A stretch of 64,000 nucleotides of DNA from a virus (IMGVR_UViG_3300025450_000015:64001-128000), one strand, 5' to 3'. Shown: positions 27,901-44,924, counted from the stretch's first letter. Program-made: numbers and translations. Notes: a model not told the origin generated them from the letters alone.

Positions 27901-30900
27901 ACTACAACAACCAGCAATTTAATTACAGTTGCAACTACAACAGGCTTATCAGTTGGACAGCAAGTGTACTTCACAGGTACAGTATTTGGTAATATTGTTC
28001 CAAGCCAGTTATACTATATTGCAAGTATCCCAACACCTGGAACTAACGGTACAATTACTGTTAGTTTAACATTTGGTGGCGGTAATGTGGCATTGATATC
28101 AGCAACTGGTACAATGACAATGGCATTCAATAACGCAGGCGGACTATGGAATAATACTACATACTGGATTAATTCATTGCAATCTGCCGCAACATTAAGC
28201 ACATTGGCAATTACTAGTACAACAGGTGTATTCAGTTGTGCAACAAGTTCAGTAACATTAACAGTAGGACAGCCAGTTGTTATTACTGGTACGTTCTCAG
28301 CTGGTAGTATCACTGGTTATACTAGTGGTGCAACATATTATATTATTGGTAATCCAACATCAACAGCTTTCCAATTGTCAGCAACATTAGGCGGAAGTGC
28401 TGTAACATCAACAACATCAGGTGGAACAATTACTGGTATTACTGTAACAGTTCCTGCCGCAACATTAACATTGACCAACAGCTTTAAGAGTGGTACAGCA
28501 TACACAATTACTAATACAGTAACTGGTATGTCAGCTACAACCACTGCTGGAGCAACAGTGACATGGCCATATTTAAATAATCCAATGATTAATGGTTCAT
28601 TAACTTACAATGATAACGTTCTAACAATTCAAGGCACAGAAATTCTTCGTGCTAACATTCCATTCCTGGCCGCAGAAGCATCTGCTTATACAGTAGCAAG
28701 TTACGGCGGTACAGTATCCAGTATAACATCTGGTAGTGTTGTTAATACAAGTGGCGCACATAATTTATTAGTAAATGACCCAGTAGTGTTTACTGGTACT
28801 GTTGGTTCAAGCAATATTGTTGCTGGTACTACTTATTATGTTTTAACTGTGCCAAGCTCAACAACATTTACTATCAGTGCAACTCAATATGGCACAGGTA
28901 CACAAACAACATTTACATTAGCAACAGGTTCGTTAGGAAGTTTAACTGTAGGCTACTACTATAACTATGCTAAGTGTGTACGCGATACAACAAACTTTAT
29001 CAATGCGTTGATTTATGATATTAATTATACAGGTAACTGGAAATCAATGCGTGCCGCAGAACTTTATGTTAACGCGGTGGCAGGATCTACAACACAAAAC
29101 TTCTATCTAGTAAGAAATGCATGTGGTATTCGTAATCAAACTATGAACGGATTGACTGGTGTTTTAAGTACAGCAAATGCTTATGGAACACGTCGACCAA
29201 CAGCAGGTGCGTATGCAAGTTTAGATCCAGGCTTTGGACCAAACGATCAAAATGCATGGGTCTATGCACGTTCAACATTCGTACAAAATTGTACAATGTT
29301 CGGTTACGCTTGCGTTGGCGCCAAAGTTGACGGTGCATTGCATGCCGGTGGATACAAATCAATGGTTGCAAACGACTATACTTGTGTTATCGGCGATGGT
29401 ATCGGTTGGTGGACAACTGGAACAGGTTCATTATCAGAACTTGTTTCAGTGTTTAACTACTACAGCTACGCTGGATACATGAGTGAATTAGGAGGACGCA
29501 TTCGTGCTACTAACGGTAACAGTTCATATGGTACATACGGTGTAGTTGCCGAAGGTGTTGACACATTTGAAACTCCAATTTACGGTACTGTAAATAACAG
29601 AAGTTACGGACCTCAAGTTACTAACGTGGTTACAGATAGTACAACACAAATTTTACGTTTAGAATACGAAAATGCAGGTACAAACTACACCAATGCTATA
29701 CCAACAATTAGTGGATCAGGTTATAACATTCTTTCTTTTGCAGATGAGTTCCGTGATGCTGGTGTATTTGAATCACGTTTAATTGACTTAAACAATGGTT
29801 TAGGTGTTGGCGGTTCAAGTTATGTAAGTTCTGTTAACGTAGGCCAAGGCGGTGCAGTAGGTTATATTACTATTGCGGCAGCCGACGTAGCATTGACTGG
29901 TTCATATAACGGAATGAAAGTACAAATTACTGCTGGTACAGGTGTTGGACAATATGCGTCAATACTAACTTATACTAACGGTAGTAAAATTGCACAAATT
30001 ATTCGTACAACATTTGCAACCTTAACTGTTACCAGTTCAAGTACTACTGCATTAACTGTGGCAAGTACTGCAACATTATATGTTGGTATGCCAATTTACT
30101 TGAGTACAACCGCTACTAATATGAATTTGACTGCATATCAAGTTTATTATGTACAGGCTATTTCAAGTACAACTCAGTTTACACTAGCATTAACATCAGG
30201 CGGTTCTGCAATTACTGGTTTAACAGCAACTAGTGGACAAACAGTCAGCTTATATGCCGCTGGTTGGGATCATGTTGTACCAGGTACTCCTATAGTTAAC
30301 ACATTAGATTTAACTACAGCATATATTATTGAACCTTATGTTTCATTCACAGGTCCAGGTTATGCCGCAACAGCAAGAACATTACCAGCTACAGCAATCT
30401 GGTCAAGTATTACATACGGTGCTGGAAATTATGTAGCAATTGCCAATGGTAGTACATCGACTGCAATTAGCACTAACGGTAAAACATGGACTCCAGGTGG
30501 TGCATTAACAGCTTCTGCATTTACAAACGTTGTTTACGGTGGAGGTCAAAGTGCTGCCGCAACAGTAACACTAGGTGGATTTGGCGGATCTGGTGCTCAG
30601 TTGACAGCAGTGATTGGTACTGGAACAAGTTTAGGACAAGTAGTTGGAGTCAACGTAATTAACGGCGGTTACAACTATAATACTGCTCCATCATTATTGT
30701 TTACAGGTGGTGGCGGTACCGGTGCCCAAGGAACAGCAGTTGTTCTTAACGGAGTAATTCAATCAGTTATTATTACAGTTAATGGTTCTGGATATACTTC
30801 AGCACCGACTGTAACAGTTGTAACTAGTGCTATTACTGCGATTACTCCTATCACTTGGGGTAAAAATTATTTCAATAGCGGAAACGTTAGCGTAACAATC

Positions 30901-33900
30901 AGTGCTCCATTTAGTGGAACTGTTTGGAGTGGAAGTTCGAGTGCAACAAGTGGCTCATACTATTACTATTATAGTGGTGCAACTCAAGCTACAAACTATT
31001 ACCTAGCAACATCGAGCGGAACATTTTCATCAACTGCTCCAACGTTTACAACAGGTACAGGATCTGCAGGAACATATGGTGTGTCATTGACATTCGTAGG
31101 TACTGCCGCAACTGCAACTCCAACATTGACAGATTACGGTGTCAGCAGTTACACAATTACTAACATTGGTTACGGTTATACTGCAACTCCTACTATTACA
31201 ATATTAGATACTAGTGCTAAATTTGTTGCAATTTCTACAACAACTACAGCAACAGCTTATAGTACAGTAGCTAATTTAGGATCATCTTGGACTTCTGGTA
31301 ACGCACTTCCATCCGCTGGATTTAACAGTTTAACTTATGGTAACGGAATTTATGTTGCAGTTGGTTACACTGGAACAACATCTAATGCCAGTGCTATTAT
31401 TACATCTAGTCCAGACGGTGTTACATGGACTGGCAGAACAGCTCCAAGCGGTGCAACACAAGCGTTTACATCTGTGGCATTTGGCTGGACTGGACCAGGA
31501 TCTAGTGCAACAACTACAGGTATGTTTGTAGCTATCGCAACTAACAGTACATCAACAGCTTACAGTACTAACGGTTTAACATGGACTACTGGTGGTGCAT
31601 TACCGTCAGTTGCTAACTGGTCTAGCGTAACTTATGGTAACGGACGTTTTGTTGCAGTAGCCGCAGGTAGCAATATTGTTGCATACAGCAACAACGGTGG
31701 TGTAACTTGGTACTCAAGTGTAGCAAATAACGGTACATACTTACCATTAGCACAAAACTGGGGAATCTCATACGGAGAAGGACAGTTCTTTGCAACAGCA
31801 ACAGGACCAACTCCTACAATGACAGCTACTACTTCAAGTGGTAACTTGATTACATTAAGCAGTACAGCCGGTTTGAACGTAGGAAATACTATTGTTCCAA
31901 CAGCAGTGACTGAAACTACAGTGGCTAGTCAGACAATTAATGCAACAGCAATTGGATTGTCAACATCGTTTATTTCTAACGGTATTGCAGGCAACGCAGG
32001 TACAACATTAACTGCACCAGTTGGTTTAGGTCCGTTTGCACTAGGTATGTATTTGACTGGTTCAAATGTGACATCAGGAACTTACATTACTGGTAGCAAT
32101 ACATTTAATTCAACATCGTCAACGATTGCAGGATCTATATTGACCATTGGCGGTACAGTTACTGGTACTGGTACAACCAGTGCTTATAGTGTACAACCTG
32201 GAATGGCATTAACTGGCGCACAATTTAACACTACAAGTTCATACATTTGGAACACGTACTATCCAAGTGGTGTACAAACTGGTGTATTTGTACCAGCAGG
32301 TACAACTACTGGTGTAATTACAACAGGTAGTCAGTTGAGCGGTACAAATATAACTACTGGTGCTACTTATATTGTTTCAAATCCAACTACTTCAGGTAGC
32401 ACAATTACTGGAACAGCATCTCCAAGCACAGTAGTTACATTCAACGGTAGTGTTTCTATAGTTAACGGACAAGGTATTTTAACTGTGTCTTCAACACCAA
32501 GCGGTGTTGGTATTCAACCAGGTTATATTCTAAGTGGTACAGGTGTTACAGCTGGCACAACTATTGTTGCACCATACGGTTCATCAACAACTCCAACTAG
32601 CTCAACCGGTCAGTGGATTGTCAGCGTAGCAACAGTAGTTAGTTCAACTGCATTGACAGGCACACCATATGTACTTACAACAACTGGTACTATCAACAAT
32701 AATACATTAATACCAGGTATGGTATTGGCTAGTACAGGCGGTACTGGTACAATTACCGCTGGTACATATATTACTGGACAAATCAGTACTACAAGTAGTG
32801 CGGTAGGTACAGGTACAGGAGTAAGCGGAACAATTGGTACTACTACACTAGTAATATCTGGTTCATCGACTGGATTCGCTGTAGGACAATTAATTACTGG
32901 CGGTAGTTTGTTCTATAACACTTATGTAGTTGCTGTTTCAGTTGCAACCAACACAACAATTACATTAAGTCAGCCATTATATGCAACAATCGGTGGCGGA
33001 ACATACAACGGTTATATTCCTGGTACTGCTGGACAATACTTTATTAGCACTACTAGTTTAGTAACCAGTGTTACTGTAACCGGTAATGCATGGGTAGCTA
33101 ACACTGGCTCATTAGTTCCATCTACAACAATAACAGGCGGATTGACTGCTTATATTGCATATCAAAATACAAGCTCTGCAAGTGCAGTAGCAAGTCCAAG
33201 TTGGGCATCTGGTGGTACTATTGGTGCAAGTTCTTTTGTTGTTAATACTGGAACAGGTATCGTAGCAGGCCAATTAATTATTGGTACAGGCATCCCATCA
33301 GGAACAGTAGTAGCAAGTTCATATGTTCCTGGTAGTACAACAGTTCCATTAGCCGTGGGAGTCGCAGGAGGCGCGGCGGCAACTATTGCTGGGTCAAATG
33401 CTACTGGTACTTATAACTTCTATACAGCAGGCGGAACTGGTACATACACATTGAATACTAGTGCATTAACTATTTCAAGTGCTCAGACAATTGGCGGACA
33501 AAGCTGGACAATTACTCCAAGTCAAACAGCGGCAGCTGGTGCAATCACTGGTACACAAAATACAATTACAGTTGGAAACACAGCCGGTATGTCAGTGGGC
33601 GAACCAATAGTGTTTACGAGTAATATTGTTAGCACAACATTGACTACAACAGCCGCTACTGGTAACTTGTTAACAGTTGGTACAACTGTTGGTATGGCGG
33701 TAGGTGCTCCAGTCGTGTTTACAGCAGTGACCCAAACTGGTAATATTACTTCTACATCTAGTACTGGTAACACAATTACATTGAACTCAACTACTGGTTT
33801 AGTACAAGGTGAAACTATTGTGTTCACAGCAGTTAGTCAAACAACTACATTAACTGCTACAACTAACGGATCATTTACATTATCAAGTTCTAGTATTACT

Positions 33901-36597
33901 AACAGTATATTAACTGTTGGTACTTTGAGTGCAGGTACAATCACTCCAGGAGCTGTTATTTCAGGTGGTAGTATTCCTGCTGGAACATATATTATATCAA
34001 ATATATCTGGTAGTGGTAACGGTAGTACTTGGAACGTAAGTACAAGTTCAGGATTTACACAAACTAGTACAAGTATTACAGGTACATTAAACATTATCAC
34101 TGTTAACTCTAACAGCGGTATGTTAATTGGTGAAACATTTACAGTTGCTACTAACGTAGGTAACTTGATTTCAGGTAACACATATTATATTACTAAAACT
34201 ATTAGTACTAACCAGCTTGCTGTAGGTACTGTGTATGGTGCCACAAGTGATTTGACTTTAGTAACAACTACTGGTCAAAGTGTTAGCGTAACAGCTGGTG
34301 CGACATTAGGCGGCGGTAATTTAACAGCTAGTACTACATTCTATATCACTAGTGTAGCAGGCAGTAATATTACAATTAGTACAGTATACAATGGTTCATC
34401 GGTAACTATTGCTAACGGTACAGGTGTATGGACATTTGTAGCAGGTGCCGCTTTTGGTAGTATTACAAGCGGTACAACATACTACGTTACAAGCATTCCA
34501 ACTCCGGGTGTAAACGGTACAATCACTGTAAGTACAACTTATGGCGGTTCTAACTTAACTGTAACAAACGGAAATGGATCATGGTCAGTAACTGAAGGTG
34601 CAACATTTGGTGGATTAACATCCGGCTCGACATATTTCATTACTGAAATTGTTGGAAGTACACTAATATCAGTAAGTACAATTTATGGTGGAACCAATGC
34701 GGTAGTTACTAACGCTGGCGGATCTTGGACTGCACAAGCAGGTTCATTATTTGGTAACTTGATTTCAGGTAATACATACTATATTGCTAGTATTGCAGGC
34801 AATCAGATTACTGTAAGTGCAAGTAGTACTTTATCTCCAGTAATTACATTAGTTAATGACACAGGTGCATGGACAAGTACAATTGGTACAAACATCGCGG
34901 CAACAAGTTGGGACGGTATCAACTGGACACAGCAAACATTGCCAACATACGCAAGTTGGATCACTCCATCATTTGGTAATCCATTAGTTACAACAACTGG
35001 TTACACACCACTATGGGTAACCGCAAGTAACCAATCTGGTACAGTAGCGGCAAGTATTCATACCGGTGCAACACCGTTGGCACGTACAAAAGTAGCTAGT
35101 GGTGCTTTAACTGAAATACGTATGATTGAACCAGGCAGTGGATTTGCTAAAGGTGTTGTTACTGGAACTACGTATGTTGCTGGTACAACAGTTACCGTAA
35201 CAGCCGTATCTGGAAATTCAATTACAATCGGTGCAACCAATTTAACAATTGGCCAACCAATTACATTTGCTACTGGGTTTGGTAACGTAGTTGCAAACAC
35301 AACTTATTATGTACAAGTAACAAGTTCAGGTACAACACTAACTATCAGTTCAACTTATTATGGTAGTCCATTTAATGCAGGTACTGCAAGTAGCATATCA
35401 GTAGCTGGTACAGTTGGACCATTGAATTTAATTACTGTAGATCAAACAGAAAACATGTATAATCTACAACCAATTGAATTCAATACTGTAAGCTCTGGCG
35501 GATTAAGCACACAAACAACTTACTATGTAATTGGATCAACAATTCAATCTACTACATTCCAAGTTGCAACTTCATCTGCATTGGCAACAATTGGTACTAG
35601 TGTTACATTAACAACAAGTACTCCAACTGGTATGCAATATACAACAGGACCAACATTAACTATTACCGATCCTAACCAAGTTAACAAAGCACCAACTCGT
35701 GTACGTACAGGTGATGGTGTGTTAGGTAACCCAAGTTTCCCATGTCGTGGTGCTGGAAATGCAACAGCAACAGCAAGTATTACTGGCGATGGATATGCTG
35801 ATATCTACCAGAATACAGCATTTATTAACGTTGCTAATTTATATGCATTACCTGCCGCAGGTGCTAACGTACAGTTCAGCAGTATTTCTAACGCATGGTA
35901 CAAACTAGTTGCTACAAGTAATCAATTAGGACAAGCAGGTAACTATACTGCTACATTCCAAGTAAGTCCAAGTCTAACAACTTATCTTGCTCCACCGAAC
36001 GGTGCATTGATTACTACAAGATTGAAATACAGTCAAACACGTTTAACTGGACATGACTTCTTGTATGTTGGCTCAGGTAACCAAACACAAACTAACTATC
36101 CAAACGTTACTGATGCAAATGCAATTCAGGCTAACCAAACATATCCAAATATTGGTGGTCGCGTATTCTTTACATCAACTGACCAAGACGGTAACTTTAA
36201 CGTTGGTAACTTGTTTGGAGTTCAACAAGCGACTGGTACAGCTACATTGAATGCCAACGCATTTAACTTAGCTGGATTACAGAGTTTGACACTAGGTTCA
36301 GTAAGTTTAGGTGTAAATAGTGCAACGATTACGCAATTTAGTACAGATCCGTACTTTACTGCTAATAGTGACAATATTTTACCAACACAAAAAGCTATTA
36401 AATCTTACATCACAGCCCAAATTGGTGGCGGATCAAGTAGTTTGAACGTAAATACACTAACGGCAGGACAGATATACATAGCTGGTAATACTATTAGTAA
36501 CCTAAATGGTAATCAAATTTATGTTAGCAGTAAGATGCTGTTCACAGGCGGAATTGACGGTGCTCCTGTAGCTACCGTATTCTTCTTATCAAGATAA
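21925..36597 (+). CDS. Giant tail fibre/baseplate protein (4890 aa), paralogue of 13353
   Basis: Same anchor motifs in the same order as 13353 (FKLGRIKF, PWATI, IIGDELRG, GGRIRATNGNSSYG, GWDHV, GHDFLYVG, STDQDGNFNVG), with many more inserted Thr/Gly-rich modules. Confidence 0.8.
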   Translation: MAQFKLGRIKFVYQGTWTTGTGYVVDDVVTVGGRTYICTTSNTASATFATDFSSGYWSVVADGSRWTGNWTNNQYYLVNDQVLYGGVVYLCTTAHTSASSTATITPTAATANGTTATLTFTALSSNIQPFLVGASITVSGFSAQTGFNGTFTVTACTATTVSYALAQSLTGTVMGTVSGTGTLGLEVNQSNWTSFASSFNWTGAWTINTRYKYNDLVSYGGLNYICNTAHVSANTTTLGLEANQSSWTVFNTGVAYQGLWNGNSTHYRINDIVKYGASLWICTTAHTSSGTFASANFSVFVNGLEYVSGGNNAWVGSITLTAASASGGTATLSFATQSAIPFAVGQSITVSGVTPSSFNGTFIVTGTPTTTQVSYALAGSLTGSVFGTVAANYVTGDIVSYGGNLYTAIASNTATTPSTGTASWQVFSTGFSFQGDWSGLTSYKIGQVVRLGGYTYMAMADNAQQTIIANQTSSGSNSVSVSATGSLVANLPIVFSGTSFGNIVSGTTYYVGTIIDSTHITLLTSSGGSTLAVTNATGSLTGTTQSQPPFSTYWTRLNAGIRWNAGTTQSYNGLSGTNITAAGSGAQFNVTTSGTTYSVTVKSGSQGTGYSASTTLKILGTQVGGISPANDITITITGVTAGAINLSSGITWTGYSVTWITASNYVLGDVVYFGANSYICVSAHTSASGNRPDADTTGTYWNLLASGAESAVLTTQGDLAYYGTNGPTRLPVGTDGQILRVGGTIPSWAYYGQINNIVYVSSTTGVDSLGASQGTTIDKPWATIRYACYQIENGYLNTNTTGLLSINKQFMLKEINNYVYYSYSFNVTGTSVQTITVGGTSSIAQTVTTNMYSGMPIVFTQTSGNIVAGTTYFVAQVINSTSFNIATTYANATAASPTLFTVGTGSANIGTYSYNQAKTERDTGTVIDGLLFDIGRGGNYKTTTNALAYFANSTTFATNVNAYDIPPFVSALNYLNTLATNYVLTNTSAAVSYQSTVWPGVTITGASGTGAVATITFATQPYVYPVGQFITVAGVNPSGYNGTYIVVASTLTSVSYASTTTTSYVSGGTVNVARATQQINTGYTAELTGVARVANLISIITSPLTLGYTTNVQPAATPNTTIFVKTGTYNEVLPIVVPSYTSIIGDELRGTVVQPAGPNLNMINDKTRSINSLTRIQSLIPNLLQNTAITPTSGNTQYLTVTGASGTGSVATLTFASQTSAPFNVNQYITVTSVNPSGYNGSYIVTAVTTNSVSYTSTTSASYVSGGVVSGQATGLPAGDVGSTTVVNQINTSVSLINDMIYNGLPKTPAITIPQLTGYNTSYLVGFGYGITQIQNNYLFIKAEIAAYLNTYYSSVWTTFGGTNQTETLRDIGFVLDGLQYDMTYGCNNQSIINGSSYYSLQIPQILASYNAATVGALQRLQAIISQIVTGTSVTATSGNSVTQSTGGSAGSAAAASFAAGRVGDVIYWLQNATSNATTLTLVGSVSGTTLTVTSGTGNGIYIGSMLTGTGVVAGTYIVNQLTSSASATAATTLASGGSAGTNTFVVSSATGIAAGQLITGTNLPAGSYVSSSYISGTSITVVNAFGAPQNFTSTGGTGAYLFYPANGAGTYTLSTSGNTGTTFTALSTFTPVTSGAYALVTNQYLQTAYNNLIARQTEIASDAQVWVQKYYQAYPISQSLTQRDAGYIALALAWDVLFGTNFNSIACGRAFNRLNASALALVANTNQELNATTGAITFIGFKAKQIASAGSTVQAQTLIDDIVTKINGQVAFNTVGSAILAGTQTIAYGTADVITVTTSGGTATFSVSLTPATTGQTITYITAGGLATFSSAQTLVKGTSVTLAAAAGGMSAGTYYVTTGVNNSFTVSLSSSYANAVAGTPGSFTGGTVTGAVGVVTIGTYYNTIASVTVTSGGNWNNTSLYSAAQATTTTSSGQGLTLSLGFVSSSYSTTVAGVQTSSNIVTLGSTAGMPTNMPITFSGLPALGSVTATATTTTSNLITVATTTGLSVGQQVYFTGTVFGNIVPSQLYYIASIPTPGTNGTITVSLTFGGGNVALISATGTMTMAFNNAGGLWNNTTYWINSLQSAATLSTLAITSTTGVFSCATSSVTLTVGQPVVITGTFSAGSITGYTSGATYYIIGNPTSTAFQLSATLGGSAVTSTTSGGTITGITVTVPAATLTLTNSFKSGTAYTITNTVTGMSATTTAGATVTWPYLNNPMINGSLTYNDNVLTIQGTEILRANIPFLAAEASAYTVASYGGTVSSITSGSVVNTSGAHNLLVNDPVVFTGTVGSSNIVAGTTYYVLTVPSSTTFTISATQYGTGTQTTFTLATGSLGSLTVGYYYNYAKCVRDTTNFINALIYDINYTGNWKSMRAAELYVNAVAGSTTQNFYLVRNACGIRNQTMNGLTGVLSTANAYGTRRPTAGAYASLDPGFGPNDQNAWVYARSTFVQNCTMFGYACVGAKVDGALHAGGYKSMVANDYTCVIGDGIGWWTTGTGSLSELVSVFNYYSYAGYMSELGGRIRATNGNSSYGTYGVVAEGVDTFETPIYGTVNNRSYGPQVTNVVTDSTTQILRLEYENAGTNYTNAIPTISGSGYNILSFADEFRDAGVFESRLIDLNNGLGVGGSSYVSSVNVGQGGAVGYITIAAADVALTGSYNGMKVQITAGTGVGQYASILTYTNGSKIAQIIRTTFATLTVTSSSTTALTVASTATLYVGMPIYLSTTATNMNLTAYQVYYVQAISSTTQFTLALTSGGSAITGLTATSGQTVSLYAAGWDHVVPGTPIVNTLDLTTAYIIEPYVSFTGPGYAATARTLPATAIWSSITYGAGNYVAIANGSTSTAISTNGKTWTPGGALTASAFTNVVYGGGQSAAATVTLGGFGGSGAQLTAVIGTGTSLGQVVGVNVINGGYNYNTAPSLLFTGGGGTGAQGTAVVLNGVIQSVIITVNGSGYTSAPTVTVVTSAITAITPITWGKNYFNSGNVSVTISAPFSGTVWSGSSSATSGSYYYYYSGATQATNYYLATSSGTFSSTAPTFTTGTGSAGTYGVSLTFVGTAATATPTLTDYGVSSYTITNIGYGYTATPTITILDTSAKFVAISTTTTATAYSTVANLGSSWTSGNALPSAGFNSLTYGNGIYVAVGYTGTTSNASAIITSSPDGVTWTGRTAPSGATQAFTSVAFGWTGPGSSATTTGMFVAIATNSTSTAYSTNGLTWTTGGALPSVANWSSVTYGNGRFVAVAAGSNIVAYSNNGGVTWYSSVANNGTYLPLAQNWGISYGEGQFFATATGPTPTMTATTSSGNLITLSSTAGLNVGNTIVPTAVTETTVASQTINATAIGLSTSFISNGIAGNAGTTLTAPVGLGPFALGMYLTGSNVTSGTYITGSNTFNSTSSTIAGSILTIGGTVTGTGTTSAYSVQPGMALTGAQFNTTSSYIWNTYYPSGVQTGVFVPAGTTTGVITTGSQLSGTNITTGATYIVSNPTTSGSTITGTASPSTVVTFNGSVSIVNGQGILTVSSTPSGVGIQPGYILSGTGVTAGTTIVAPYGSSTTPTSSTGQWIVSVATVVSSTALTGTPYVLTTTGTINNNTLIPGMVLASTGGTGTITAGTYITGQISTTSSAVGTGTGVSGTIGTTTLVISGSSTGFAVGQLITGGSLFYNTYVVAVSVATNTTITLSQPLYATIGGGTYNGYIPGTAGQYFISTTSLVTSVTVTGNAWVANTGSLVPSTTITGGLTAYIAYQNTSSASAVASPSWASGGTIGASSFVVNTGTGIVAGQLIIGTGIPSGTVVASSYVPGSTTVPLAVGVAGGAAATIAGSNATGTYNFYTAGGTGTYTLNTSALTISSAQTIGGQSWTITPSQTAAAGAITGTQNTITVGNTAGMSVGEPIVFTSNIVSTTLTTTAATGNLLTVGTTVGMAVGAPVVFTAVTQTGNITSTSSTGNTITLNSTTGLVQGETIVFTAVSQTTTLTATTNGSFTLSSSSITNSILTVGTLSAGTITPGAVISGGSIPAGTYIISNISGSGNGSTWNVSTSSGFTQTSTSITGTLNIITVNSNSGMLIGETFTVATNVGNLISGNTYYITKTISTNQLAVGTVYGATSDLTLVTTTGQSVSVTAGATLGGGNLTASTTFYITSVAGSNITISTVYNGSSVTIANGTGVWTFVAGAAFGSITSGTTYYVTSIPTPGVNGTITVSTTYGGSNLTVTNGNGSWSVTEGATFGGLTSGSTYFITEIVGSTLISVSTIYGGTNAVVTNAGGSWTAQAGSLFGNLISGNTYYIASIAGNQITVSASSTLSPVITLVNDTGAWTSTIGTNIAATSWDGINWTQQTLPTYASWITPSFGNPLVTTTGYTPLWVTASNQSGTVAASIHTGATPLARTKVASGALTEIRMIEPGSGFAKGVVTGTTYVAGTTVTVTAVSGNSITIGATNLTIGQPITFATGFGNVVANTTYYVQVTSSGTTLTISSTYYGSPFNAGTASSISVAGTVGPLNLITVDQTENMYNLQPIEFNTVSSGGLSTQTTYYVIGSTIQSTTFQVATSSALATIGTSVTLTTSTPTGMQYTTGPTLTITDPNQVNKAPTRVRTGDGVLGNPSFPCRGAGNATATASITGDGYADIYQNTAFINVANLYALPAAGANVQFSSISNAWYKLVATSNQLGQAGNYTATFQVSPSLTTYLAPPNGALITTRLKYSQTRLTGHDFLYVGSGNQTQTNYPNVTDANAIQANQTYPNIGGRVFFTSTDQDGNFNVGNLFGVQQATGTATLNANAFNLAGLQSLTLGSVSLGVNSATITQFSTDPYFTANSDNILPTQKAIKSYITAQIGGGSSSLNVNTLTAGQIYIAGNTISNLNGNQIYVSSKMLFTGGIDGAPVATVFFLSR

Positions 36598-36617
36598 AAT
36601 AAAAACGGAGAAATAAC

Positions 36618-36956
36618 ATGGCAGGATCAGGAAATAAAGCAACGACACAATTGAACGCAGGTACACAGTCTACTTATTCGTTAATCTATACAGTACCAAC
36701 CGGTTACTACGGTGTTTATAACATTTCATTTACAAACACTACAGCTTCTGCGGCAACTATTAGATTATATATAGGTGCAAGTACTGCGGCATCTCAGGTT
36801 GCCAGTGAAGCATATGAATACTTAACAACAGTAGTTGGTTATGGTGTGTTTGAACGTACAGGAATTGTAATGGCAGCTGGTGCAAACATTGTTGCTAGCT
36901 CAAGCGTTGCTGGTGTAAACGTTAACGTTTACGGAATTGAAACATCGACATCATAA
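36618..36956 (+). CDS. Small virion protein (third family member with 7698 and 12613)
   Basis: 112 aa: YTVPTG...N...IRLYI...ERTGIVM..G..IV..SS...NVYGIE. Confidence 0.65.
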   Translation: MAGSGNKATTQLNAGTQSTYSLIYTVPTGYYGVYNISFTNTTASAATIRLYIGASTAASQVASEAYEYLTTVVGYGVFERTGIVMAAGANIVASSSVAGVNVNVYGIETSTS

Positions 36957-36978
36957 TTAGTATAAGAGAGAATAAAAC

Positions 36979-38949
36979 ATGGCACGTTATAATACATCGC
37001 TGGCAACAGAAATTGTTTCCGGAGCACAAACTCTGTTAACACCTGCACAAGGTGGTTACACAGAATTTCAAGGATCTGCACCGTACACGGTGGTTATCCC
37101 AGGACCAACATTATTTTTAGGACAGTCGCAAAGTTATTTTAACAACACTAGTGGTGTTGTTACACTTTCTGCTCCTAGCGGATATATTGCTGGTAGTCCT
37201 AGTTCTCCGGTGTTTAACGGACCAGGTGGTTCTAGTACAAACTTATTGGCCATGCCAGCAGGATCTAGTTGTATTATTGGATCTGATGGTACTAACTATA
37301 GTATAATTACATTCCCAGGCGGTAATCAATTTGGTATTAACGGAACTTTTTCAGCTGATTTGATTAGTACCAATACTGGTACCACCAATATCTACAATAC
37401 AAATACTCAGACAGTTAACTTTGCAGGCGCGGCAACTAGTATCAATATTGGTTCTAGCACTGGTACAACTACTATTAACAATCAATTGTTAGTAAAAGGC
37501 GGAACAGTTGTTCTTAACTCTAGTTCAGTACGTACAGAAGATAAAAATATTGAAATTGGATATGTTAATCCAGTTACTTATGGTGGCGGTACTGTTACAA
37601 CTATCGGTGGTGCGTTAGGCGGTAGTACAACATTTACAAGTATTACTGGTACAAAAGTAACTGGTGCAGGTACATACAGTGGTGTTGGACAATTTGCTAC
37701 AAGTGGTAGCGGATCGGGTGCAACTTTTAACATCACTACAACTGGGTCAGGTACAACTTATACTGGTGTAACTACAATTACATTGGTTAATCCAGGAAGT
37801 AACTATGCAATCAATGATACAATTACTATTGGTGGTAACTTACTTGGTGGTACTAATAGTCCTAACAACTTAACATTCACTGTAAGCAACGTTAACTACA
37901 GTCCTTGGATTGCAACTATTACCGGTATGCCCAACACTACCAACTTGGTAAACGGTCAAGCTGTTAGTGCAACTAACGGTACAGGTAGTTTAGGCGGCGG
38001 CGGTACAAGTTATGTAATAAGCAACATTGTAAGTGGAACTAGTATTCAGGTAACAGTAACAGGCGGCACAACTCCTGTAGCTGGTACAATTACAGCTATT
38101 ACTCCAGGTAGTGCTGATACATTTGCCAACGGCGGCGGCATATTATTATATGGAACTAGTAATCACACATTACAATGGGCAAGCAGTACATTAGGTCCAA
38201 CAAGCGGTGGCGGTAACCCAGCTTGGGTTAGTTCAGAAGGGTTGTATATCAATACTTCTAATACATTTGGTATTCAAAGTGGTAGCAACGTTAACTTTAA
38301 CTTATTGACCAACGGTCAAGCTACTGGTACTGTTAACATTGCAACCAACGCTGGTACAGGTAACTTGTTTACTGGAGCAAGTTCAGCAGTTAACATTGGT
38401 GCTAGCGGTGGTACTGCTACAATCAGCAACACTAACTTTACAGTTGGACAGTCTGGTGGTACAGTTACTTTTAACGGTATTACAACTTTCACAATGAATA
38501 GCGTAACAGCGTTTAACTTAACTGGCGGCGGTACAATGAATGCTGGTAGTACATATGGTTATTTTAGTTCGCTAGGCGTTGGTACTAACACTAACGGTGG
38601 TGGTGGTACAATTTATGCGGCAAACAACATTGTTGCTTACTACTCAGATGACAGATTAAAGACACGTTTGGGCAAAATTGAAGATGCTCTTGCTAAGTTA
38701 GAAACATTAAATGGTTTTTACTTTGAAGCTAACCAAACTGCTCAGGATTTGGGATATACTGTTCAACGTGAAGTTGGAGTTTCTGCTCAAGAAGTTAATG
38801 CAATCCTGCCAGAAATTATCAAACCAGCTCCAATCGACGCTAAGTACATGACAGTTCAGTACGAAAAGTTATTACCATTAGTGATTGAAGCAGTTAAGGA
38901 ATTGTCAAGCCAAGTTAAAGAATTAAAAGCACAGATTAACAAGGAATAA
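36979..38949 (+). CDS. Tail fibre with C-terminal intramolecular chaperone (peptidase S74) domain
   Basis: YYSDDRLK autocleavage site, then GVSAQEV..ILPE, YMTVQYEKLLPLVIEAVKEL and a terminal coiled coil. Confidence 0.9.
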   Translation: MARYNTSLATEIVSGAQTLLTPAQGGYTEFQGSAPYTVVIPGPTLFLGQSQSYFNNTSGVVTLSAPSGYIAGSPSSPVFNGPGGSSTNLLAMPAGSSCIIGSDGTNYSIITFPGGNQFGINGTFSADLISTNTGTTNIYNTNTQTVNFAGAATSINIGSSTGTTTINNQLLVKGGTVVLNSSSVRTEDKNIEIGYVNPVTYGGGTVTTIGGALGGSTTFTSITGTKVTGAGTYSGVGQFATSGSGSGATFNITTTGSGTTYTGVTTITLVNPGSNYAINDTITIGGNLLGGTNSPNNLTFTVSNVNYSPWIATITGMPNTTNLVNGQAVSATNGTGSLGGGGTSYVISNIVSGTSIQVTVTGGTTPVAGTITAITPGSADTFANGGGILLYGTSNHTLQWASSTLGPTSGGGNPAWVSSEGLYINTSNTFGIQSGSNVNFNLLTNGQATGTVNIATNAGTGNLFTGASSAVNIGASGGTATISNTNFTVGQSGGTVTFNGITTFTMNSVTAFNLTGGGTMNAGSTYGYFSSLGVGTNTNGGGGTIYAANNIVAYYSDDRLKTRLGKIEDALAKLETLNGFYFEANQTAQDLGYTVQREVGVSAQEVNAILPEIIKPAPIDAKYMTVQYEKLLPLVIEAVKELSSQVKELKAQINKE

Positions 38950-38952
38950 ACG

Positions 38953-39354
38953 ATGACAACTCCTTCAAGTCCTATTTATATTAGTCAAATTGACGGCGAA
39001 ATTGGACTGCCTAACAGCAGTCCATACAGCAATTTGAGTAATCTTAATGGATATGTAATTCCAGGACAACGTGATAGTTACCCAACTATGAACGAAATGC
39101 GTAACAGAGCATACTATCGTTCAAATAACAAGGGTAATTGCAACAACGGAAATTGTCCAAATAATTGTAATTGTGGTAACATTTGCTGTACAAACTGTTA
39201 TAATTGTAATAACATCAATTGCACAAATTGCGATGGTCAAAACTGGTTACAAAACAACTGTAATTGCAACTGCACTTACAACTGTAACATTAATACCAAC
39301 GTATATTATAACTGTAATTGTAACTGTAATTGTAACTGTAACTGTAACTGCTAA
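38953..39354 (+). CDS. Cys/Asn-rich small protein; putative fibre-tip adhesin and radical SAM substrate
   Basis: 21 Cys in residues 63-133, 19 of them in Asn-Cys dipeptides, ending in (NC)7. Residues 1-62 have no Cys and start MTTPSSPIYISQIDGEIG. SD AAGGA; 3 nt after the fibre stop. Confidence 0.8.
   Translation: MTTPSSPIYISQIDGEIGLPNSSPYSNLSNLNGYVIPGQRDSYPTMNEMRNRAYYRSNNKGNCNNGNCPNNCNCGNICCTNCYNCNNINCTNCDGQNWLQNNCNCNCTYNCNINTNVYYNCNCNCNCNCNCNC
39310..39351 (+). repeat. (AAYTGY)7 hexamer repeat encoding (Asn-Cys)7
   Basis: AACTGT AATTGT AACTGT AATTGT AACTGT AACTGT AACTGC, varying only at synonymous third positions. Confidence 0.9.
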
Positions 39355-39372
39355 TATACCACAAGGAATCTT

Positions 39373-40839
39373 ATGATTTTTGAAATACTGACAGAAAAGT
39401 TTGGATCAAACCCACCTGATCTAAGAACGTTCTTCTATGACAACGAAAAAAATGTCTTAAGCGATGAAACAGGATTCGTCTATGAGTATCCCGATGCTTA
39501 TGCAAATAATTTTGAAAATCGAGTACCATACAAACCATTTGATAAAGATCGTCCTTTAATTAAATCTCGCAGTACTAATCACGTAAAAATTCAACTAGGA
39601 TTAAGTTGTAATTATAGTTGTGATTATTGCAGTCAAAAATTTGTGGAACGCCCACGTGAAACTAATGCTAAAGACATTGAAAATTTTATGGAAATGTTTA
39701 AGACTTTAGAGTTTAACGAAGAAGACGGTTTACGAGTTGAATTTTGGGGAGGTGAACCTTTAGTTTACTGGAAGACATTAAAACCCCTGGCCGAAGCAGT
39801 AGCAGAATTTTTTAAAGATTGGAGAAAGAAACCAGTTTTTAGTATTATTACTAATGGTAGTATTTTAACAGAAGAAATCTGTGCTTGGCTATACAGTATG
39901 GAATTCCATGTAGCTATCAGTCATGACGGGCCAGGACAACATGTACGCGGACCAGATCCATTTGCAGATCCTAAGAAACGTGAAATTATTTTAGATTTAT
40001 ACCAGATTTTGCGTCCTTTAAATCGCATCAGTTTTAACTCAATGTTAAACAGACAAAATCTTAGTCGTAAAGCTATATTTGATTATTTTATTAATTTTAC
40101 AAATGATCCCAATGTTAGTTTAGGTGAAGGTACCTTTGTAGATGCATATGATGCCGATGGCCTACAACACAGTTTACAAACTAAACAAGATCATTTCGAA
40201 TTTAGAAAAATCGCGTTCGGAGAAATTTACGGATCTAACGGTGAAATCGGCTTTGGCAACATATTACAAAAAGTTGATAATTTCACAGAATCAGTATTGA
40301 CCCATCAGCAAGCAGACTATTTAGGTCAAAAATGCGGCATGGATGACGAAAGAACCGTTGCATTTGATTTAAACGGCAATGTAATTACTTGCCAAAATGT
40401 CAGTGCTATCGAAATTAACAAAAACGGAGAACCTCACTTAGGTGGTAAGATTACTGAGATCGAGGACGTAAAAATTACTACTAGTACACACTGGAGTAAT
40501 CGTGCAGAATGTCCAAGTTGTCCAGTGTTGCATATTTGTAAAGGTGCATGTATGTTCCTTTCAGATGAATTCTGGACTACAAGTTGCAATAACGCCTATA
40601 GCGATAACGTACCATTGTTTGCCGCAAGTATTGAAAAAATAACAGGTGGTTATGTTCCTTACCATATTAAGGGCAAAGGATTACCATTAGAGCGCCAAGA
40701 TATCTGGGGCGGTGTATTCAAACACGAAGAAGAAAAGAAAAAAATAATACCTATTAAGATTGTCAGTGAAAAAGTTGCTGTAATCGACAATGTCGAAGTT
40801 TACGGTAAGAGTTCCTTGATAAATACTGAACAGGAATAA
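39373..40839 (+). CDS. Radical SAM enzyme with SPASM domain (peptide/protein maturase type)
   Basis: CNYSCDYC (CxxxCxxC), FWGGEP, ITNG and ISHDG; full 7-Cys SPASM pattern C-x13-G-x4-C...CPSCPVLHICKGAC...C. Confidence 0.95.
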   Translation: MIFEILTEKFGSNPPDLRTFFYDNEKNVLSDETGFVYEYPDAYANNFENRVPYKPFDKDRPLIKSRSTNHVKIQLGLSCNYSCDYCSQKFVERPRETNAKDIENFMEMFKTLEFNEEDGLRVEFWGGEPLVYWKTLKPLAEAVAEFFKDWRKKPVFSIITNGSILTEEICAWLYSMEFHVAISHDGPGQHVRGPDPFADPKKREIILDLYQILRPLNRISFNSMLNRQNLSRKAIFDYFINFTNDPNVSLGEGTFVDAYDADGLQHSLQTKQDHFEFRKIAFGEIYGSNGEIGFGNILQKVDNFTESVLTHQQADYLGQKCGMDDERTVAFDLNGNVITCQNVSAIEINKNGEPHLGGKITEIEDVKITTSTHWSNRAECPSCPVLHICKGACMFLSDEFWTTSCNNAYSDNVPLFAASIEKITGGYVPYHIKGKGLPLERQDIWGGVFKHEEEKKKIIPIKIVSEKVAVIDNVEVYGKSSLINTEQE

Positions 40840-40852
40840 GGAATAGCAGATC

Positions 40853-41848
40853 ATGAATTTAACTCAAAATTTAATACAGTTTCAACATTCGCAGTTGATA
40901 GCACTAGATATAAAATTTACTGACACTGGATTTCAGTGGACAGTATTTGATGCCTATAAAAAATCAGAATTGCAGTTGGAATGGGCTAGTTTAGCAGATA
41001 ATACCGTTACTGCTAGAAAAGTAGCCGGAGTTAGATATCCAAGCCCTGCTGACGAATTTGCATGGGAAACAGAAACACATAGAGTTTATAGTCAAACTTC
41101 AGGAGTCTATCCTGGTGTAACAGCAGGAATTTCTGGAGAAATAAATTGGACAGATATTACCAACAATGAGGGATTTTCAGATCATGCTATTTTTGCAATC
41201 ACTCACCCAGCTGACCAAGTTACTGTAAGAAATTTAAATGTAAGATACGTTCAACAAACTGCTTTGAATACAAGAACAGGTATCCCATTATACAATTTAG
41301 TAGCCAATTCACAACTACATAAGAAAAATCCAGTTAGGGCAATGTCTTTGCAAAAGAATAGTCCTATGATTTTAATTTCTATTCCGTTTGCAGAAATGAA
41401 TCCATCAGATTGGAACATGATGGTTGCGTTGGGCGATAGCGATCCTGGCCTAGTAAGAATATCGTCAGGCGAACAATTCACAAATGTAATCACCGACGAG
41501 CTTGGCAGAATCGTATATACTATGCCAAAAGTTTATTTTACAAATAAGACTGCTACTGTCAGCCCAGACGGCTATGTCGATTTACCGTTTTACTTAGGAA
41601 CTCCTACCGATTTAAATCCCCCAGCAAAAACAAGCTCTGAGCATGGATTGCCTATAACGGATCACAATGCAACTATATATTTAAAAACTACGGCAGGTCA
41701 CTTGAATAAACAACAAGTACAAACAGTCAACGGTGTAGGAACTGTTCGTTTAATTGCAACACATCTTGTTCCAGGTGACACTATCACAGTAAGTTGTGGT
41801 TTTCAATATTGGTCAGGATCAGACGACTGCGTTATAACCGTACAATAA
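40853..41848 (+). CDS. Hypothetical protein with possible C-terminal Ig-like domain; radical SAM cassette partner
   Basis: 13 nt after the rSAM stop; beta-strand-rich C-terminus (IYLKTTAGHL...GTVRLIA...GDTITVSCGF); TAAATA at 40820-40825 upstream. Confidence 0.65.
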   Translation: MNLTQNLIQFQHSQLIALDIKFTDTGFQWTVFDAYKKSELQLEWASLADNTVTARKVAGVRYPSPADEFAWETETHRVYSQTSGVYPGVTAGISGEINWTDITNNEGFSDHAIFAITHPADQVTVRNLNVRYVQQTALNTRTGIPLYNLVANSQLHKKNPVRAMSLQKNSPMILISIPFAEMNPSDWNMMVALGDSDPGLVRISSGEQFTNVITDELGRIVYTMPKVYFTNKTATVSPDGYVDLPFYLGTPTDLNPPAKTSSEHGLPITDHNATIYLKTTAGHLNKQQVQTVNGVGTVRLIATHLVPGDTITVSCGFQYWSGSDDCVITVQ

Positions 41849-41855
41849 GGTTTTT

Positions 41856-43058
41856 ATGAAAATAGGCATTATAGGTAGTGGTACCGCCAGCGCCGTTTCA
41901 TTACTTGCAATTTTTGATAAATTTAAATTCCATAGATGCAAACACATAGATGTGTATTGCATATACAATCCTGACATTCCTGTAACTACTGTGGGCGAAA
42001 GTACTAGCCCTATAATGCCTAGTTTACTTTATCATGCTATTGATTTTTCTGTTACTGAAGAATTAAAAGAGTTCGATGGTACCCTTCGCTGGGGTACTCG
42101 TTACTACTGGGAAGATATTAATGATAAAAATTTCCTAGTAAGGCATGGACATACAGGATTGCATGTCAACAGTGAAAAATTTAGCGGATTTGTTATCAAC
42201 AAACTTGATAAATTATACGATAATTTTTTTCAAATACACGGTAATGTCTCAGACATAACACAAGATCATACTCACGTATCGATATTAGTCGACGGAGTGC
42301 AACATAAATTTGACTATATCATCGATTGTAGAGGATCACCGTCGGCCGAAGAAATGGATAGTGGACTATACGAATTTCCAAAATTTGAAACAGTTAACTC
42401 AGTAATACTATTTCCTGACTTTAAAGAGTATAACGAAGATTTAACAAGTGCATATCCACATGACGACGGCTGGATGTTTGGAGTACCATTAACTCATCGT
42501 AAAGCCTTTGGTTATCTATATAATAAAAATATAACAACTCAGGAAGAAGCGATTGAAAAATTTTCTAAATTAAAAAATATTGATGCTAGTAAATTAAGAA
42601 AATTTAGCTGGAGACAGTATTATAAAAAAGAAGCAATGAATGGACGCATATTATCCATGGGTAACAGACTATATTTTCTTGAACCTGCACAAGCATTGCC
42701 GTTACATTTTTATATAAATTTGTCTGTAGAGTTTATTGAAACATTAATTAAAGGTACTAATTTACAAACACCGCATTTTAATAGAGGAATTAATACTTCT
42801 TATCTTAAAAGTATGGAAGATATGTTGAATTTAGTTGCACTAAACTATGTAGGTCCTTGCAAAAAAGATACGCCTTTCTGGAATACAGTCACAGCACTGG
42901 CTAAAGAACGTTTACAAACATCGGAAAGATTTCAAAAATATGTAAGATTGTGTCAGCAGACTGGAGAATACGAGCAGTATTGGGCACACAATTCAGCCTT
43001 GATGAAAGAATATATCGAAGGCTTTGATATTAAACTAGATCAACTAAGTCAAATATAG
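41856..43058 (+). CDS. Tryptophan-halogenase-family flavoprotein (atypical active-site motifs)
   Basis: IGIIGSGTA FAD-binding start, TVGEST, DYIIDCRG, GWMFGVPL..RKAFGYLY and GNRLYFLEP. Confidence 0.85.
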   Translation: MKIGIIGSGTASAVSLLAIFDKFKFHRCKHIDVYCIYNPDIPVTTVGESTSPIMPSLLYHAIDFSVTEELKEFDGTLRWGTRYYWEDINDKNFLVRHGHTGLHVNSEKFSGFVINKLDKLYDNFFQIHGNVSDITQDHTHVSILVDGVQHKFDYIIDCRGSPSAEEMDSGLYEFPKFETVNSVILFPDFKEYNEDLTSAYPHDDGWMFGVPLTHRKAFGYLYNKNITTQEEAIEKFSKLKNIDASKLRKFSWRQYYKKEAMNGRILSMGNRLYFLEPAQALPLHFYINLSVEFIETLIKGTNLQTPHFNRGINTSYLKSMEDMLNLVALNYVGPCKKDTPFWNTVTALAKERLQTSERFQKYVRLCQQTGEYEQYWAHNSALMKEYIEGFDIKLDQLSQI

Positions 43059-43479
43059 TTTGTAATTTGGTACGAATAGTTTTACTGTTAAAACTATTAC
43101 GTAGTCCTTGATGTAAGGGTTTAGGTGTGCGATCTACAGTAGTCCAAGCCCAACCAATGTGTTCGTCACTCAAGACAGGAACAAACTCGTTATCTATTAC
43201 ACACAAATAAGTATGAAAATTAAATACTTTATCGTTACTGACAAATGTTTCTAATGGGATTGTTTTAATTATTTTAGGCACTGCACCTATTTCTTCTTTA
43301 ATTTCGCGTTGAAGACCTTGCCAAGGTGTTTCACCTATGATGTTTGTCCCGCCGACTAATCCCCACGTGCCTTCGTGTTTACCGTGACTTTTTTGAAGTA
43401 ATAAAAATCGTTGTGTAGATTTAGCATAAAATAATGCACCACTACAAACTATTCTATCTTTTACAATATTATTTTCCAT
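43030..43479 (-). CDS. NUDIX hydrolase
   Basis: Complete Nudix box G-TNIIG-E-TPWQGLQ-REIKEEIG; LSDEH..WAW. Confidence 0.92.
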   Translation of the reverse strand: MENNIVKDRIVCSGALFYAKSTQRFLLLQKSHGKHEGTWGLVGGTNIIGETPWQGLQREIKEEIGAVPKIIKTIPLETFVSNDKVFNFHTYLCVIDNEFVPVLSDEHIGWAWTTVDRTPKPLHQGLRNSFNSKTIRTKLQTIFDLVDLV

Positions 43480-44924
43480 TGGCCCACACCATATTCACCT
43501 TCAAAGCTCTTGACCCATGCAACCCCGTTCCACAAGTACTGAACTCCAGTGTATATATTCGTTTGCCATACCATAGTGTCTGATTCTAGAGCGGCATGAA
43601 AAATAACTTGCCATACTGAACCAGTATATTCTATAATGTCATTAGCATTAGCTACTAAACTGCCCCATACGACAGCAGGATTTGTATTAGTCGTGTTGCC
43701 TATATCTTCAATAATTAGATAACGTGTACCTGCTATTGGGTTGTTAGGTGTATAAGTTTGAGGATTAATAATGGCATCAAAAGTACCAGGGCTGTTTGGT
43801 CGATAACTAGTAGCGGCATTGTAATCTTTTACATCTGTACTTAAAAATCCGTTACTATCAATTCCAGTATTGCTAGTCAATGTATCTGTATTATAATTAA
43901 TTTGTAAAATTGCAGGATTTGTAGGATTAATAGCAATAGTACCTATAACGTAAGTCCCATTTGGTTGCAACAAATACAACATACTAGAACCTGCAACATA
44001 TTTTCCGGGGAATAAATTGAATACACTTTCCCAACTTTGAGGATTACTGATCGGAGTAGGAATAGTCAACGTCGGTTCTGGAGGATTAACACCTCCTCCT
44101 GATTCTAACAAAGTTGCCTGGCCGTCGTATACTGCTATAGGAAATCCTGTAACTGTAACATTTTCAGTAGCAAGCAAATTGCTAAATGACGGACTAGTGC
44201 CATCAGATTGTAGTGCAGGATCTATTCCTAATCCTTCAACATACCCAGACGGATAAGTTCCTTCGGACCCATAGACACTTGTAATAATTTTTGTAATAAC
44301 ACCAAGATGTTTGACCTTAACTGGAGGACTAATCCAGATAGGAGAATCTAAACTTAATGTTGCTATATCAATAGGAGTATCATTGCCGACAGGAACTTGT
44401 CTACTATCCCAAACGATATCTCCTAAATTAAGAACTGATAAACTAGTCCAGTCAATATAGTTGTCTGTGGTTTGCAATTCTAAACTAGGGTTGAATAACA
44501 CTAGTATTTGTTCTAATATTTGTAATTTTTGATCAGTACTGCTAGTCCAAATATCGCATTTCATCTTTAATTGAAAAGGAGTAGGCATCAAGCGTTCAAC
44601 TGTATAATTACGTCCTTGATTTCCGGTATAATTATTTCCGTTAATATCTCTTTCGCGAAAATGCAACTTGCCTACATAAGTTTGATCAGCTAACCTATTT
44701 CTATCTAGTTCTAAACCAGTTACATACACACTTATACGTGGAATACTATTAACAGCATTTTCACTGTTTTGACGTATGATGCTGGCCACTTGACGATCTG
44801 CATCGCCGTACATTACGGGTACTTGATGTAGTGTTCCATCTCCATATTTGACCACAAAATTACTGAGCACTCGTATAGTTTGTGTCAAATATCTTCTTAC
44901 TTGTCCGTCATAAAACCACTGCAT
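43461..44924 (-). CDS. Tail completion/sheath stabiliser (T4 gp15-like) with C-terminal extension
   Basis: FYD..RRY, VPVMYG, PRISV, P.P+.L...DIW...DQ.LQILEQILVLFNP, WISPP; adjacent to the neck genes. Confidence 0.8.
   Translation of the reverse strand: MQWFYDGQVRRYLTQTIRVLSNFVVKYGDGTLHQVPVMYGDADRQVASIIRQNSENAVNSIPRISVYVTGLELDRNRLADQTYVGKLHFRERDINGNNYTGNQGRNYTVERLMPTPFQLKMKCDIWTSSTDQKLQILEQILVLFNPSLELQTTDNYIDWTSLSVLNLGDIVWDSRQVPVGNDTPIDIATLSLDSPIWISPPVKVKHLGVITKIITSVYGSEGTYPSGYVEGLGIDPALQSDGTSPSFSNLLATENVTVTGFPIAVYDGQATLLESGGGVNPPEPTLTIPTPISNPQSWESVFNLFPGKYVAGSSMLYLLQPNGTYVIGTIAINPTNPAILQINYNTDTLTSNTGIDSNGFLSTDVKDYNAATSYRPNSPGTFDAIINPQTYTPNNPIAGTRYLIIEDIGNTTNTNPAVVWGSLVANANDIIEYTGSVWQVIFHAALESDTMVWQTNIYTGVQYLWNGVAWVKSFEGEYGVGQWKIIL

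Follow-up and report, generated by a model that had tools for sequence, protein, structure and literature searches.

The stretch of DNA considered here, hereafter the window, comprises 64,000 nucleotides (nt) of a viral metagenome record (IMGVR_UViG_3300025450_000015:64001-128000). The subject of this analysis is a cassette of five genes on its + strand, which encode a tail fibre with a C-terminal S74 chaperone, a 133-amino-acid (aa) protein rich in Asn and Cys, a radical S-adenosylmethionine (SAM) enzyme, a partner protein and a halogenase-family flavoprotein (Table 1). Adjacent genes are separated by only 3, 18, 13 and 7 nt. Both the five co-directional open reading frames (ORFs) and their spacing had been put forward in an original prediction for this locus and were reproduced exactly; its further claim, that no terminator lies between the genes, was borne out by a scan of the + strand, which found no terminator-like site between cassette genes and a sole site within the five genes, inside the fibre ORF. 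Over positions 36000-44000, the scan gave four terminator-like sites against a shuffled expectation of 4.1, that is, no enrichment.

Table 1. Genes of the cassette and the terminal cysteine ladder, with positions counted from the first nucleotide of the window.
Feature	Position	Strand	Characteristics
S74 tail fibre, 656 aa	36979..38949	+	C-terminal S74 intramolecular chaperone; Pfam PF13884, PHROG tail-fibre families
Putative fibre-type tip protein, 133 aa, presumed radical SAM substrate	38953..39354	+	Cys-free head, residues 1-62; Asn/Cys-rich domain, residues 63-133
(Asn-Cys)7 terminal ladder	39309..39351	+	Encoded by AAY-TGY hexanucleotides, repeated imperfectly and with synonymous changes
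Radical SAM enzyme, 488 aa, phage-specific clade	39373..40839	+	PF04055; phrog_1802, E 7e-62; TIGR04085 SPASM
Partner protein, 331 aa	40853..41848	+	Ig-like C-terminal domain, residues 225-331; N-terminal alpha/beta part, residues 1-224
Halogenase-family flavoprotein, 400 aa	41856..43058	+	PF04820, E 1.3e-31; GxGxxG kept, halogenase signature residues lost

The fibre matches Peptidase_S74 (PF13884) over residues 556-613, starting at profile position 1 (E 2.7e-8; 34.4 bits against a cut-off of 22). Its cleavage motif, YY/SDDRLK (the slash marks the cut), places the Ser at residue 556, the start of the S74 domain, and the fibre is therefore predicted to cleave itself before Ser556.

The small protein that follows has 21 Cys, the number originally claimed, together with 38 Asn and 19 NC dipeptides; the first Cys is residue 63, and the chain closes with (NC)7. 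Among the 113 ORFs of at least 60 aa in the window, it is the only one to carry an (N/D/A-Cys)n motif. In the alignment of its family (A3), C63, N65, N67, N81-C82, D94, Q100, N104-C105, N110-C111 and C121 are invariant, and the N-terminal head is conserved in the manner of a domain. Across 123 unique proteins, the residue X in the (X-Cys)n repeats is Asn in 64% of cases, Ala in 20%, Asp in 12% and Gln in <1%. A profile search of the Cys-rich family against PDB sequences gave no meaningful match. When longer proteins with the N-terminal 60 residues of the 133-aa protein were sought, none was found, which is weak evidence.

A 78-aa ORF with 23 Cys at 8897-9133 on the - strand, considered as a second substrate, was rejected as the antisense shadow of a Thr-rich, fibre-like gene (8036-9241), and it serves as a control: opposite a Thr-rich gene, a Cys-rich ORF can appear by chance. 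Unlike this shadow, the 133-aa ORF has no Thr-rich partner gene on the opposite strand.

The enzyme encoded next has the radical SAM cluster motif CxxxCxxC (C79-x3-C83-x2-C86) and scores 34.8 bits against PF04055 (cut-off 29.5). A SPASM domain, with its two auxiliary clusters, was recognized by the pattern C-x9-15-G-x4-C ... C-x2-C-x5-C-x3-C ... C, and all seven Cys are in place: C321-x13-G335-x4-C340 ... C380-x2-C383-x5-C389-x3-C393 ... C405. These Cys and those of CxxxCxxC are invariant across seven homologues, down to 45% identity. TIGR04085 (SPASM) is reached with 30.6 bits against a cut-off of 27, and this generic domain is the only NCBIfam entry whose cut-off is attained. The full SPASM motif of the original prediction is thus confirmed by the seven invariant Cys and by the TIGR04085 score.

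The pairing of this enzyme with an (X-Cys)n protein is near-obligate. With the radical SAM enzyme as the query, loci (numbered with the prefix L) were collected from GenBank phages, IMG/VR contigs and one genome per prokaryote species, yielding 154 distinct enzyme sequences at 34-100% identity. Co-occurrence was scored when an ORF on the same strand, within about 5 kb, had (N/D/A-Cys)n with n of at least 3 or was a homologue of the Cys-rich domain. Such a protein is present in 76 of the 80 distinct loci with full flanks. One of the four exceptions is an artefact of the exclusion rule (L006, where the Cys-rich protein is actually present); L058 has a divergent 15-Cys protein, phage RSP15 has a side tail fibre ending in NTNCQCGN, and in L105 the fibre is possibly disrupted. 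The background of the motif in these loci is 137/5846 ORFs on the + strand and 0/6710 on the - strand.

The original prediction had proposed this search, and had named enzymes that usually lack a Cys-rich neighbour as the outcome that would count against it. That outcome was not observed. The search was run in both directions, and the reciprocal one, seeded with the Cys-rich family, found the radical SAM enzyme in 73 of 74 new loci; in the remaining one, the contig stops 210 nt beyond the match. Over the whole range of enzyme identity, from 100% to 34%, the pairing is retained, and it extends over jumbo and T4-like freshwater phages (myoviruses), the siphovirus JWF, the Ackermannviridae phage RSP15 and prophages of Limnohabitans, Polynucleobacter and Burkholderia (Burkholderiales) with lambda-like tails. 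That this enzyme clade is dedicated to (Asn/Asp/Ala-Cys)n proteins is strongly supported at the level of gene content. In GenBank, the JWF and RSP15 genes are labelled "radical SAM domain-containing protein" or "anaerobic sulfatase-maturating enzyme".

The loci can be sub-divided into three architectures according to where the repeat is found. The window belongs to type A, in which a protein of 125-173 aa, encoded immediately upstream of the enzyme, has the repeat at its C-terminus. In type B, the protein measures about 300 aa and is encoded just downstream, with the Cys-rich domain followed by a second domain of about 180 aa. The latter (e.g., L026 7468-8376; about 40 loci) starts ...CSKIICAKLYDFGLM..., has no Pfam match and has a hydrophobic end; perhaps it is one more module for processing or anchoring. 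Type C is found in Burkholderiales prophages, JWF and RSP15, where a lambda-like tail block continues from the J protein into a fibre of 184-616 aa that ends in (NC)n, and then into genes for a protein of the partner family, a 2-oxoglutarate (2OG)-Fe(II) oxygenase and the radical SAM enzyme. Some of the type C fibres (L116 and L169) possess collagen triple-helix repeats, which form obligate trimers.

In other phages, the Cys-rich domain or the repeat is also found fused to proteins annotated as tail fibres. L029 and L065 encode fusions of the window-type Cys-rich domain with S74, whose profile begins two residues past the repeat (junctions ...NCNCACFW/SDD and ...NCNCDCLF/SDD). JWF gp028 and its homologue from Burkholderia paludis (L102) have a Hint domain that begins at the Cys right after NCNCDCNCNCS. 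These two proteins (L002 4799-6250 and L102 3733-5262) also have an N-terminal match to the PilV shufflon-like constant region (PF04917), followed by (NC)n and Hint. As read from the sequence, the Hint module would do the job of the S74 chaperone. Because two unrelated self-cleaving modules are found at the same spot, the ladder would serve as the tip, with a free C-terminus, of the trimeric fibre after maturation, and the 133-aa protein of the window is probably a fibre tip of the virion.

The fibre of the window resembles S74 endosialidase-type fibres and spikes in ending with this chaperone. A small gene after a fibre gene also recalls the gp38-type adhesins, in position only, the gp38 gene following that of the distal fibre protein gp37. 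We know of no Cys ladder or dedicated radical SAM enzyme in any known S74 fibre or gp38 adhesin, and a full-text literature search found no account of phage fibres as the target of a radical SAM enzyme.

We consider it likely that the cassette is a virion-maturation module, in which the radical SAM enzyme cross-links the Cys ladder of a trimeric fibre tip through thioethers. The neighbouring radical SAM/SPASM enzyme would take the ladder of the 133-aa protein as its substrate, reductively cleave SAM and abstract a hydrogen from a residue adjoining a Cys. An auxiliary Fe-S cluster would hold the Cys thiol, which would then be joined to the carbon radical, and a series of such thioethers would lock the tip of the fibre. 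The components of this proposal are not equally secure. These phages very probably modify their fibre tip chemically, and we are fairly confident from the gene pairing that the enzyme acts on the 133-aa protein; as to the product, we lean towards a thioether, by analogy with related maturases. The best NCBIfam similarities of the enzyme are to thioether-forming maturases (PapB, 1.2e-20; QhpD, 2.7e-19; CcpM, 4e-16). The X residues of the repeats, namely Asn, Ala, Asp and Gln, are the same set of acceptors as is accepted by NxxcB, which links Cys to the beta-carbon of its native acceptor, Asn, with Ala, Gln and Asp tolerated in its place (PMC9389541).

Several observations should be set against this proposal. 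The Cys-rich protein of the window is the product of a separate gene, so that its attachment to the fibre is deduced from position and from the fusions found elsewhere, and its AlphaFold2 (AF2) monomer model is unusable (predicted local distance difference test, pLDDT, 45). Since Ala occupies 20% of the X positions, an Asn or Asp side chain is not required. No RiPP (peptide that is made ribosomally and modified post-translationally) recognition element was detected in the enzyme with Pfam or NCBIfam over residues 1-70, a short stretch. The enzyme does not come near the cut-off of any characterised maturase family in NCBIfam: it scores 74.1 bits against PapB (NF047865; cut-off 340), where only residues 72-188 align and it is not a member, 69.2 against QhpD (TIGR03906; 453), 42.2 against the CrpC family (TIGR04463; 525), 42.8 against the SCIFF maturase (TIGR03974; 425) and 44.8 against the anaerobic sulfatase-maturating enzyme (anSME; TIGR03942; 349). 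Its closest solved relative by sequence is the cyclopropylglycine synthase 8VPO (1.2e-11), followed by CteB (5WGG; 4.5e-7), with the similarity in both cases confined to the N-terminal half. As the enzyme belongs to no characterised family and its nearest structure is a cyclopropylglycine synthase, the reaction may be of another type.

The same points leave room for a different product on the same fibre tip, such as formylglycine made from Cys (as by anSME) or a C-C cross-link, and also for epimerisation or some further radical reaction on the residues that flank Cys. Besides lying outside every named maturase family and having a closest solved relative that makes cyclopropylglycine rather than a thioether, the enzyme has its sole full-length NCBIfam alignment with anSME (residues 75-393; E 8.6e-12), which is also among its PDB matches. 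The C/S-x-P/A-x-R motif of sulfatases, however, is absent from the substrate; invariant Cys alternating with small residues that possess a beta-carbon fit the thioether systems, and it is thioether formers that give the strongest family similarities. We therefore regard a non-thioether product as unlikely.

The original prediction called the last gene product of the cassette a halogenase-family flavoprotein. The family assignment stands (PF04820 Trp_halogenase, 110.4 bits against a cut-off of 21; the FAD-binding GxGxxG is GSGTAS, residues 7-12; PDB matches include RebH, MibH (5UAO) and VirX1), and the protein shares the fold and family of RebH, PrnA, MibH and VirX1. The catalytic residues have been lost: in the alignment with RebH, K79 is replaced by R78 (TLRWGTRYYW) and E357 by Gln (EPAQAL), and the WxWxIP motif of halogenases reads WMFGVP. 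The relatives in L006 and L008 share Arg78, the Gln of EPAQAL and WMFGVP with the window, and in all three the Cys-rich protein ends in NC.

Thirteen halogenases of sister loci, by comparison, have retained WxWxIP and EPLE along with the catalytic Lys (T-x-K-x-G-I-K-F). Wherever a canonical halogenase is accompanied by a visible Cys-rich gene (11/11 loci), the mature end of the Cys-rich protein is Trp (...CxCxCW), and in L029 this Trp immediately precedes the S74 cleavage site; no Cys-rich protein of the halogenase-less loci has a terminal Trp. Unlike these halogenase-associated proteins, the presumed substrate in the window has no terminal Trp, and the flavoprotein encoded there is, judging by its residues, probably a derivative of a halogenase that no longer halogenates. 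It appears to be maintained, since it is more conserved between lineages than the partner protein (65% identity with L006 and 52% with L008, against 41% and 36% for the partner).

2OG-Fe(II) oxygenases (PF13759, PF13640) accompany the radical SAM enzyme in 124/172 loci, and none is encoded within the 64-kb window. The flavoprotein may stand in for the missing oxygenase, although this is speculation. In the enzyme block downstream of a type B phage radical SAM gene, we also observed a protein of the fatty-acid-desaturase family (L026 10471-11169; PF00487, E 7.6e-11). A more extended scenario can be offered tentatively, with somewhat less than even confidence: many unrelated tailed phages could use the radical SAM enzyme to staple, through thioethers, the C-terminal (X-Cys)n ladders of the three chains of a host-recognition fibre, with lineage-specific enzymes adding hydroxylation (2OG oxygenases) and halogenating the terminal Trp, and with the halogenase in the lineage of the window having been repurposed for a new function other than halogenation. 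The tip would then be the first virion organelle to be enzymatically cross-linked and tailored.

Alternatively, the ladder might be a structural element of the trimeric tip that remains unmodified, binding a metal or Fe-S cluster or forming disulfides, with the radical SAM enzyme having some other target or delivering the cofactor or cluster. Metal-bearing fibre and spike tips are familiar (T4 gp37, with its His-Fe needle, gp12 and gp5), and in a trimeric beta-structure an axial metal site could be lined by Cys at every second position. Metal binding, however, requires no dedicated enzyme, yet enzyme and repeat are paired almost without exception in both directions. SPASM enzymes overwhelmingly modify peptides or proteins, and further protein-tailoring enzymes travel with this one, namely the 2OG oxygenases and a halogenase that tracks the terminal Trp. 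We judge an unmodified ladder to be highly improbable.

It is least probable of all that the cassette is a phage-borne RiPP cluster (a moron) making a diffusible bacteriocin or signal from a 133-aa precursor, for although the layout is RiPP-like (a Cys-free N-terminal part, a Cys-rich core, a radical SAM/SPASM enzyme and tailoring enzymes), the cluster contains no gene for a leader protease or an exporter, it is embedded in a structural tail-fibre block, the head of the 133-aa family is conserved like a domain, and the same repeat forms the C-terminus of long tail fibres or lies directly before S74 and Hint modules. The lack of a protease and exporter, together with the presence of the repeat on fibres, therefore argues for a part of the virion and not a diffusible product, and the original proposal of a virion component rather than a secreted peptide gains support from the collagen-bearing fibres and from the S74 and Hint junctions.

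A fibre tip matured through thioethers, as preferred here, can be compared with several characterised systems. As with PapB/PapA (freyrasin) and NxxcB/NxxcA, a radical SAM/SPASM enzyme adjoins a Cys-rich substrate; the substrates of PapB and NxxcB are short, secreted peptides that carry leaders, whereas that of the phage is presumably a fibre-type protein or the C-terminus of a fibre. Closer in this respect are QhpD/QhpC and CrpC/CrpA, where SPASM enzymes cross-link whole proteins (PMC13692751). CrpA has an N-terminal recognition part and C-terminal Cys repeats, and is predicted to form a beta-helix; its modification is enhanced by an accessory protein, CrpB (PMC13692751). These systems, in which thioethers (ranthionines) are placed on a large or folded Cys-rich protein and not on a peptide, resemble what is proposed for the phage. 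QhpC is a subunit of a cellular enzyme and CrpA an archaeal protein of unknown role, and neither is a virion fibre; in addition, their repeat units are C-x-x-Q/D or longer, in contrast to the alternating X-C of the phage proteins. CteB, the SCIFF maturase (5WGG), and 8VPO have the same architecture of a radical SAM core plus SPASM, but both possess N-terminal RiPP recognition element domains of their own and act on peptides, and 8VPO forms C-C bonds.

For the 331-aa partner protein, no Pfam, NCBIfam or PHROG family was found, and a profile search against PDB sequences gave no meaningful match. Its AF2 model (pLDDT 83; predicted template modelling score, pTM, 0.83) suggests that residues 225-331 form an Ig-like domain, with VIA-align Z scores of 10-11 to the Ig domains of intimin, invasin and GH2 enzymes. 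No solved fold matched the alpha/beta part (residues 1-224), which was not searched as a separate domain, and the structural relatives over the whole length are all uncharacterised phage proteins. The family is not universal, being present in 67/172 loci, that is, in type C and in the lineage of the window, and comparison by hhalign with the accessory families in the same slot (f224, JWF gp029, L026_219 and L010_246) revealed no relation. We infer that the partner is an accessory protein or chaperone; as a lineage-specific accessory with an Ig domain, it might present the substrate to the enzyme or act as an adaptor.

With regard to the genomic setting, the cassette ends a run of + strand genes, and the next genes, which are convergent with it on the - strand, encode a NUDIX hydrolase and a gp15-like sheath stabiliser. 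The NUDIX gene (43030-43479) and the flavoprotein gene share 29 nt where their 3' ends overlap, and the order of fibre cassette, NUDIX and gp15-like genes is also found in L003, L006, L008 and L016. Directly upstream of the cassette lies a single ORF of 4890 aa (21925-36597, + strand), with abundant Thr, Ser, Gly and Ala and numerous "VSYA...GTV" repeat modules, which is presumably a giant fibre or decoration protein. Between it and the S74 fibre is a gene for a 112-aa protein (36618-36956, + strand), whose position is conserved in about 10 related loci and whose only match is a weak one to a PHROG tail-fibre family (E 2.2e-5).

The T4 late-promoter box TATAAATA is absent from the + strand of the region, which thus gives no support for late timing. 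Megablast of the whole region against GenBank phages and an Rfam search over 30-50 kb both returned no match. The source record of 101.9 kb was judged to be only 28% complete, which implies that this freshwater phage is a jumbo myovirus; Pseudomonas phage PA5oct and Sinorhizobium phage Phosso have tail genes that distantly resemble those of the window.

Tail-fibre tips determine which bacteria a phage infects, and the 133-aa protein may have an effect on host binding. To our knowledge, such tips have been thought of as unmodified protein, apart from self-cleavage and metal binding. The present analysis supports, in its core, a widespread system in which protein cross-linking of the RiPP type or of the QhpD/CrpC type is applied to the fibre tips of viruses, the thioether itself being suggested by analogy. 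If this is true, enzymatic post-translational chemistry would join virion assembly, and RiPP-type cross-linking would reach from peptides to structural parts of viruses. It would also bear on receptor-binding proteins and engineered phages expressed in hosts without the enzyme, and would supply protein engineering with compact Cys-ladder scaffolds already diversified in nature. JWF and RSP15, which carry the system, are cultured phages in which it can be tested directly.

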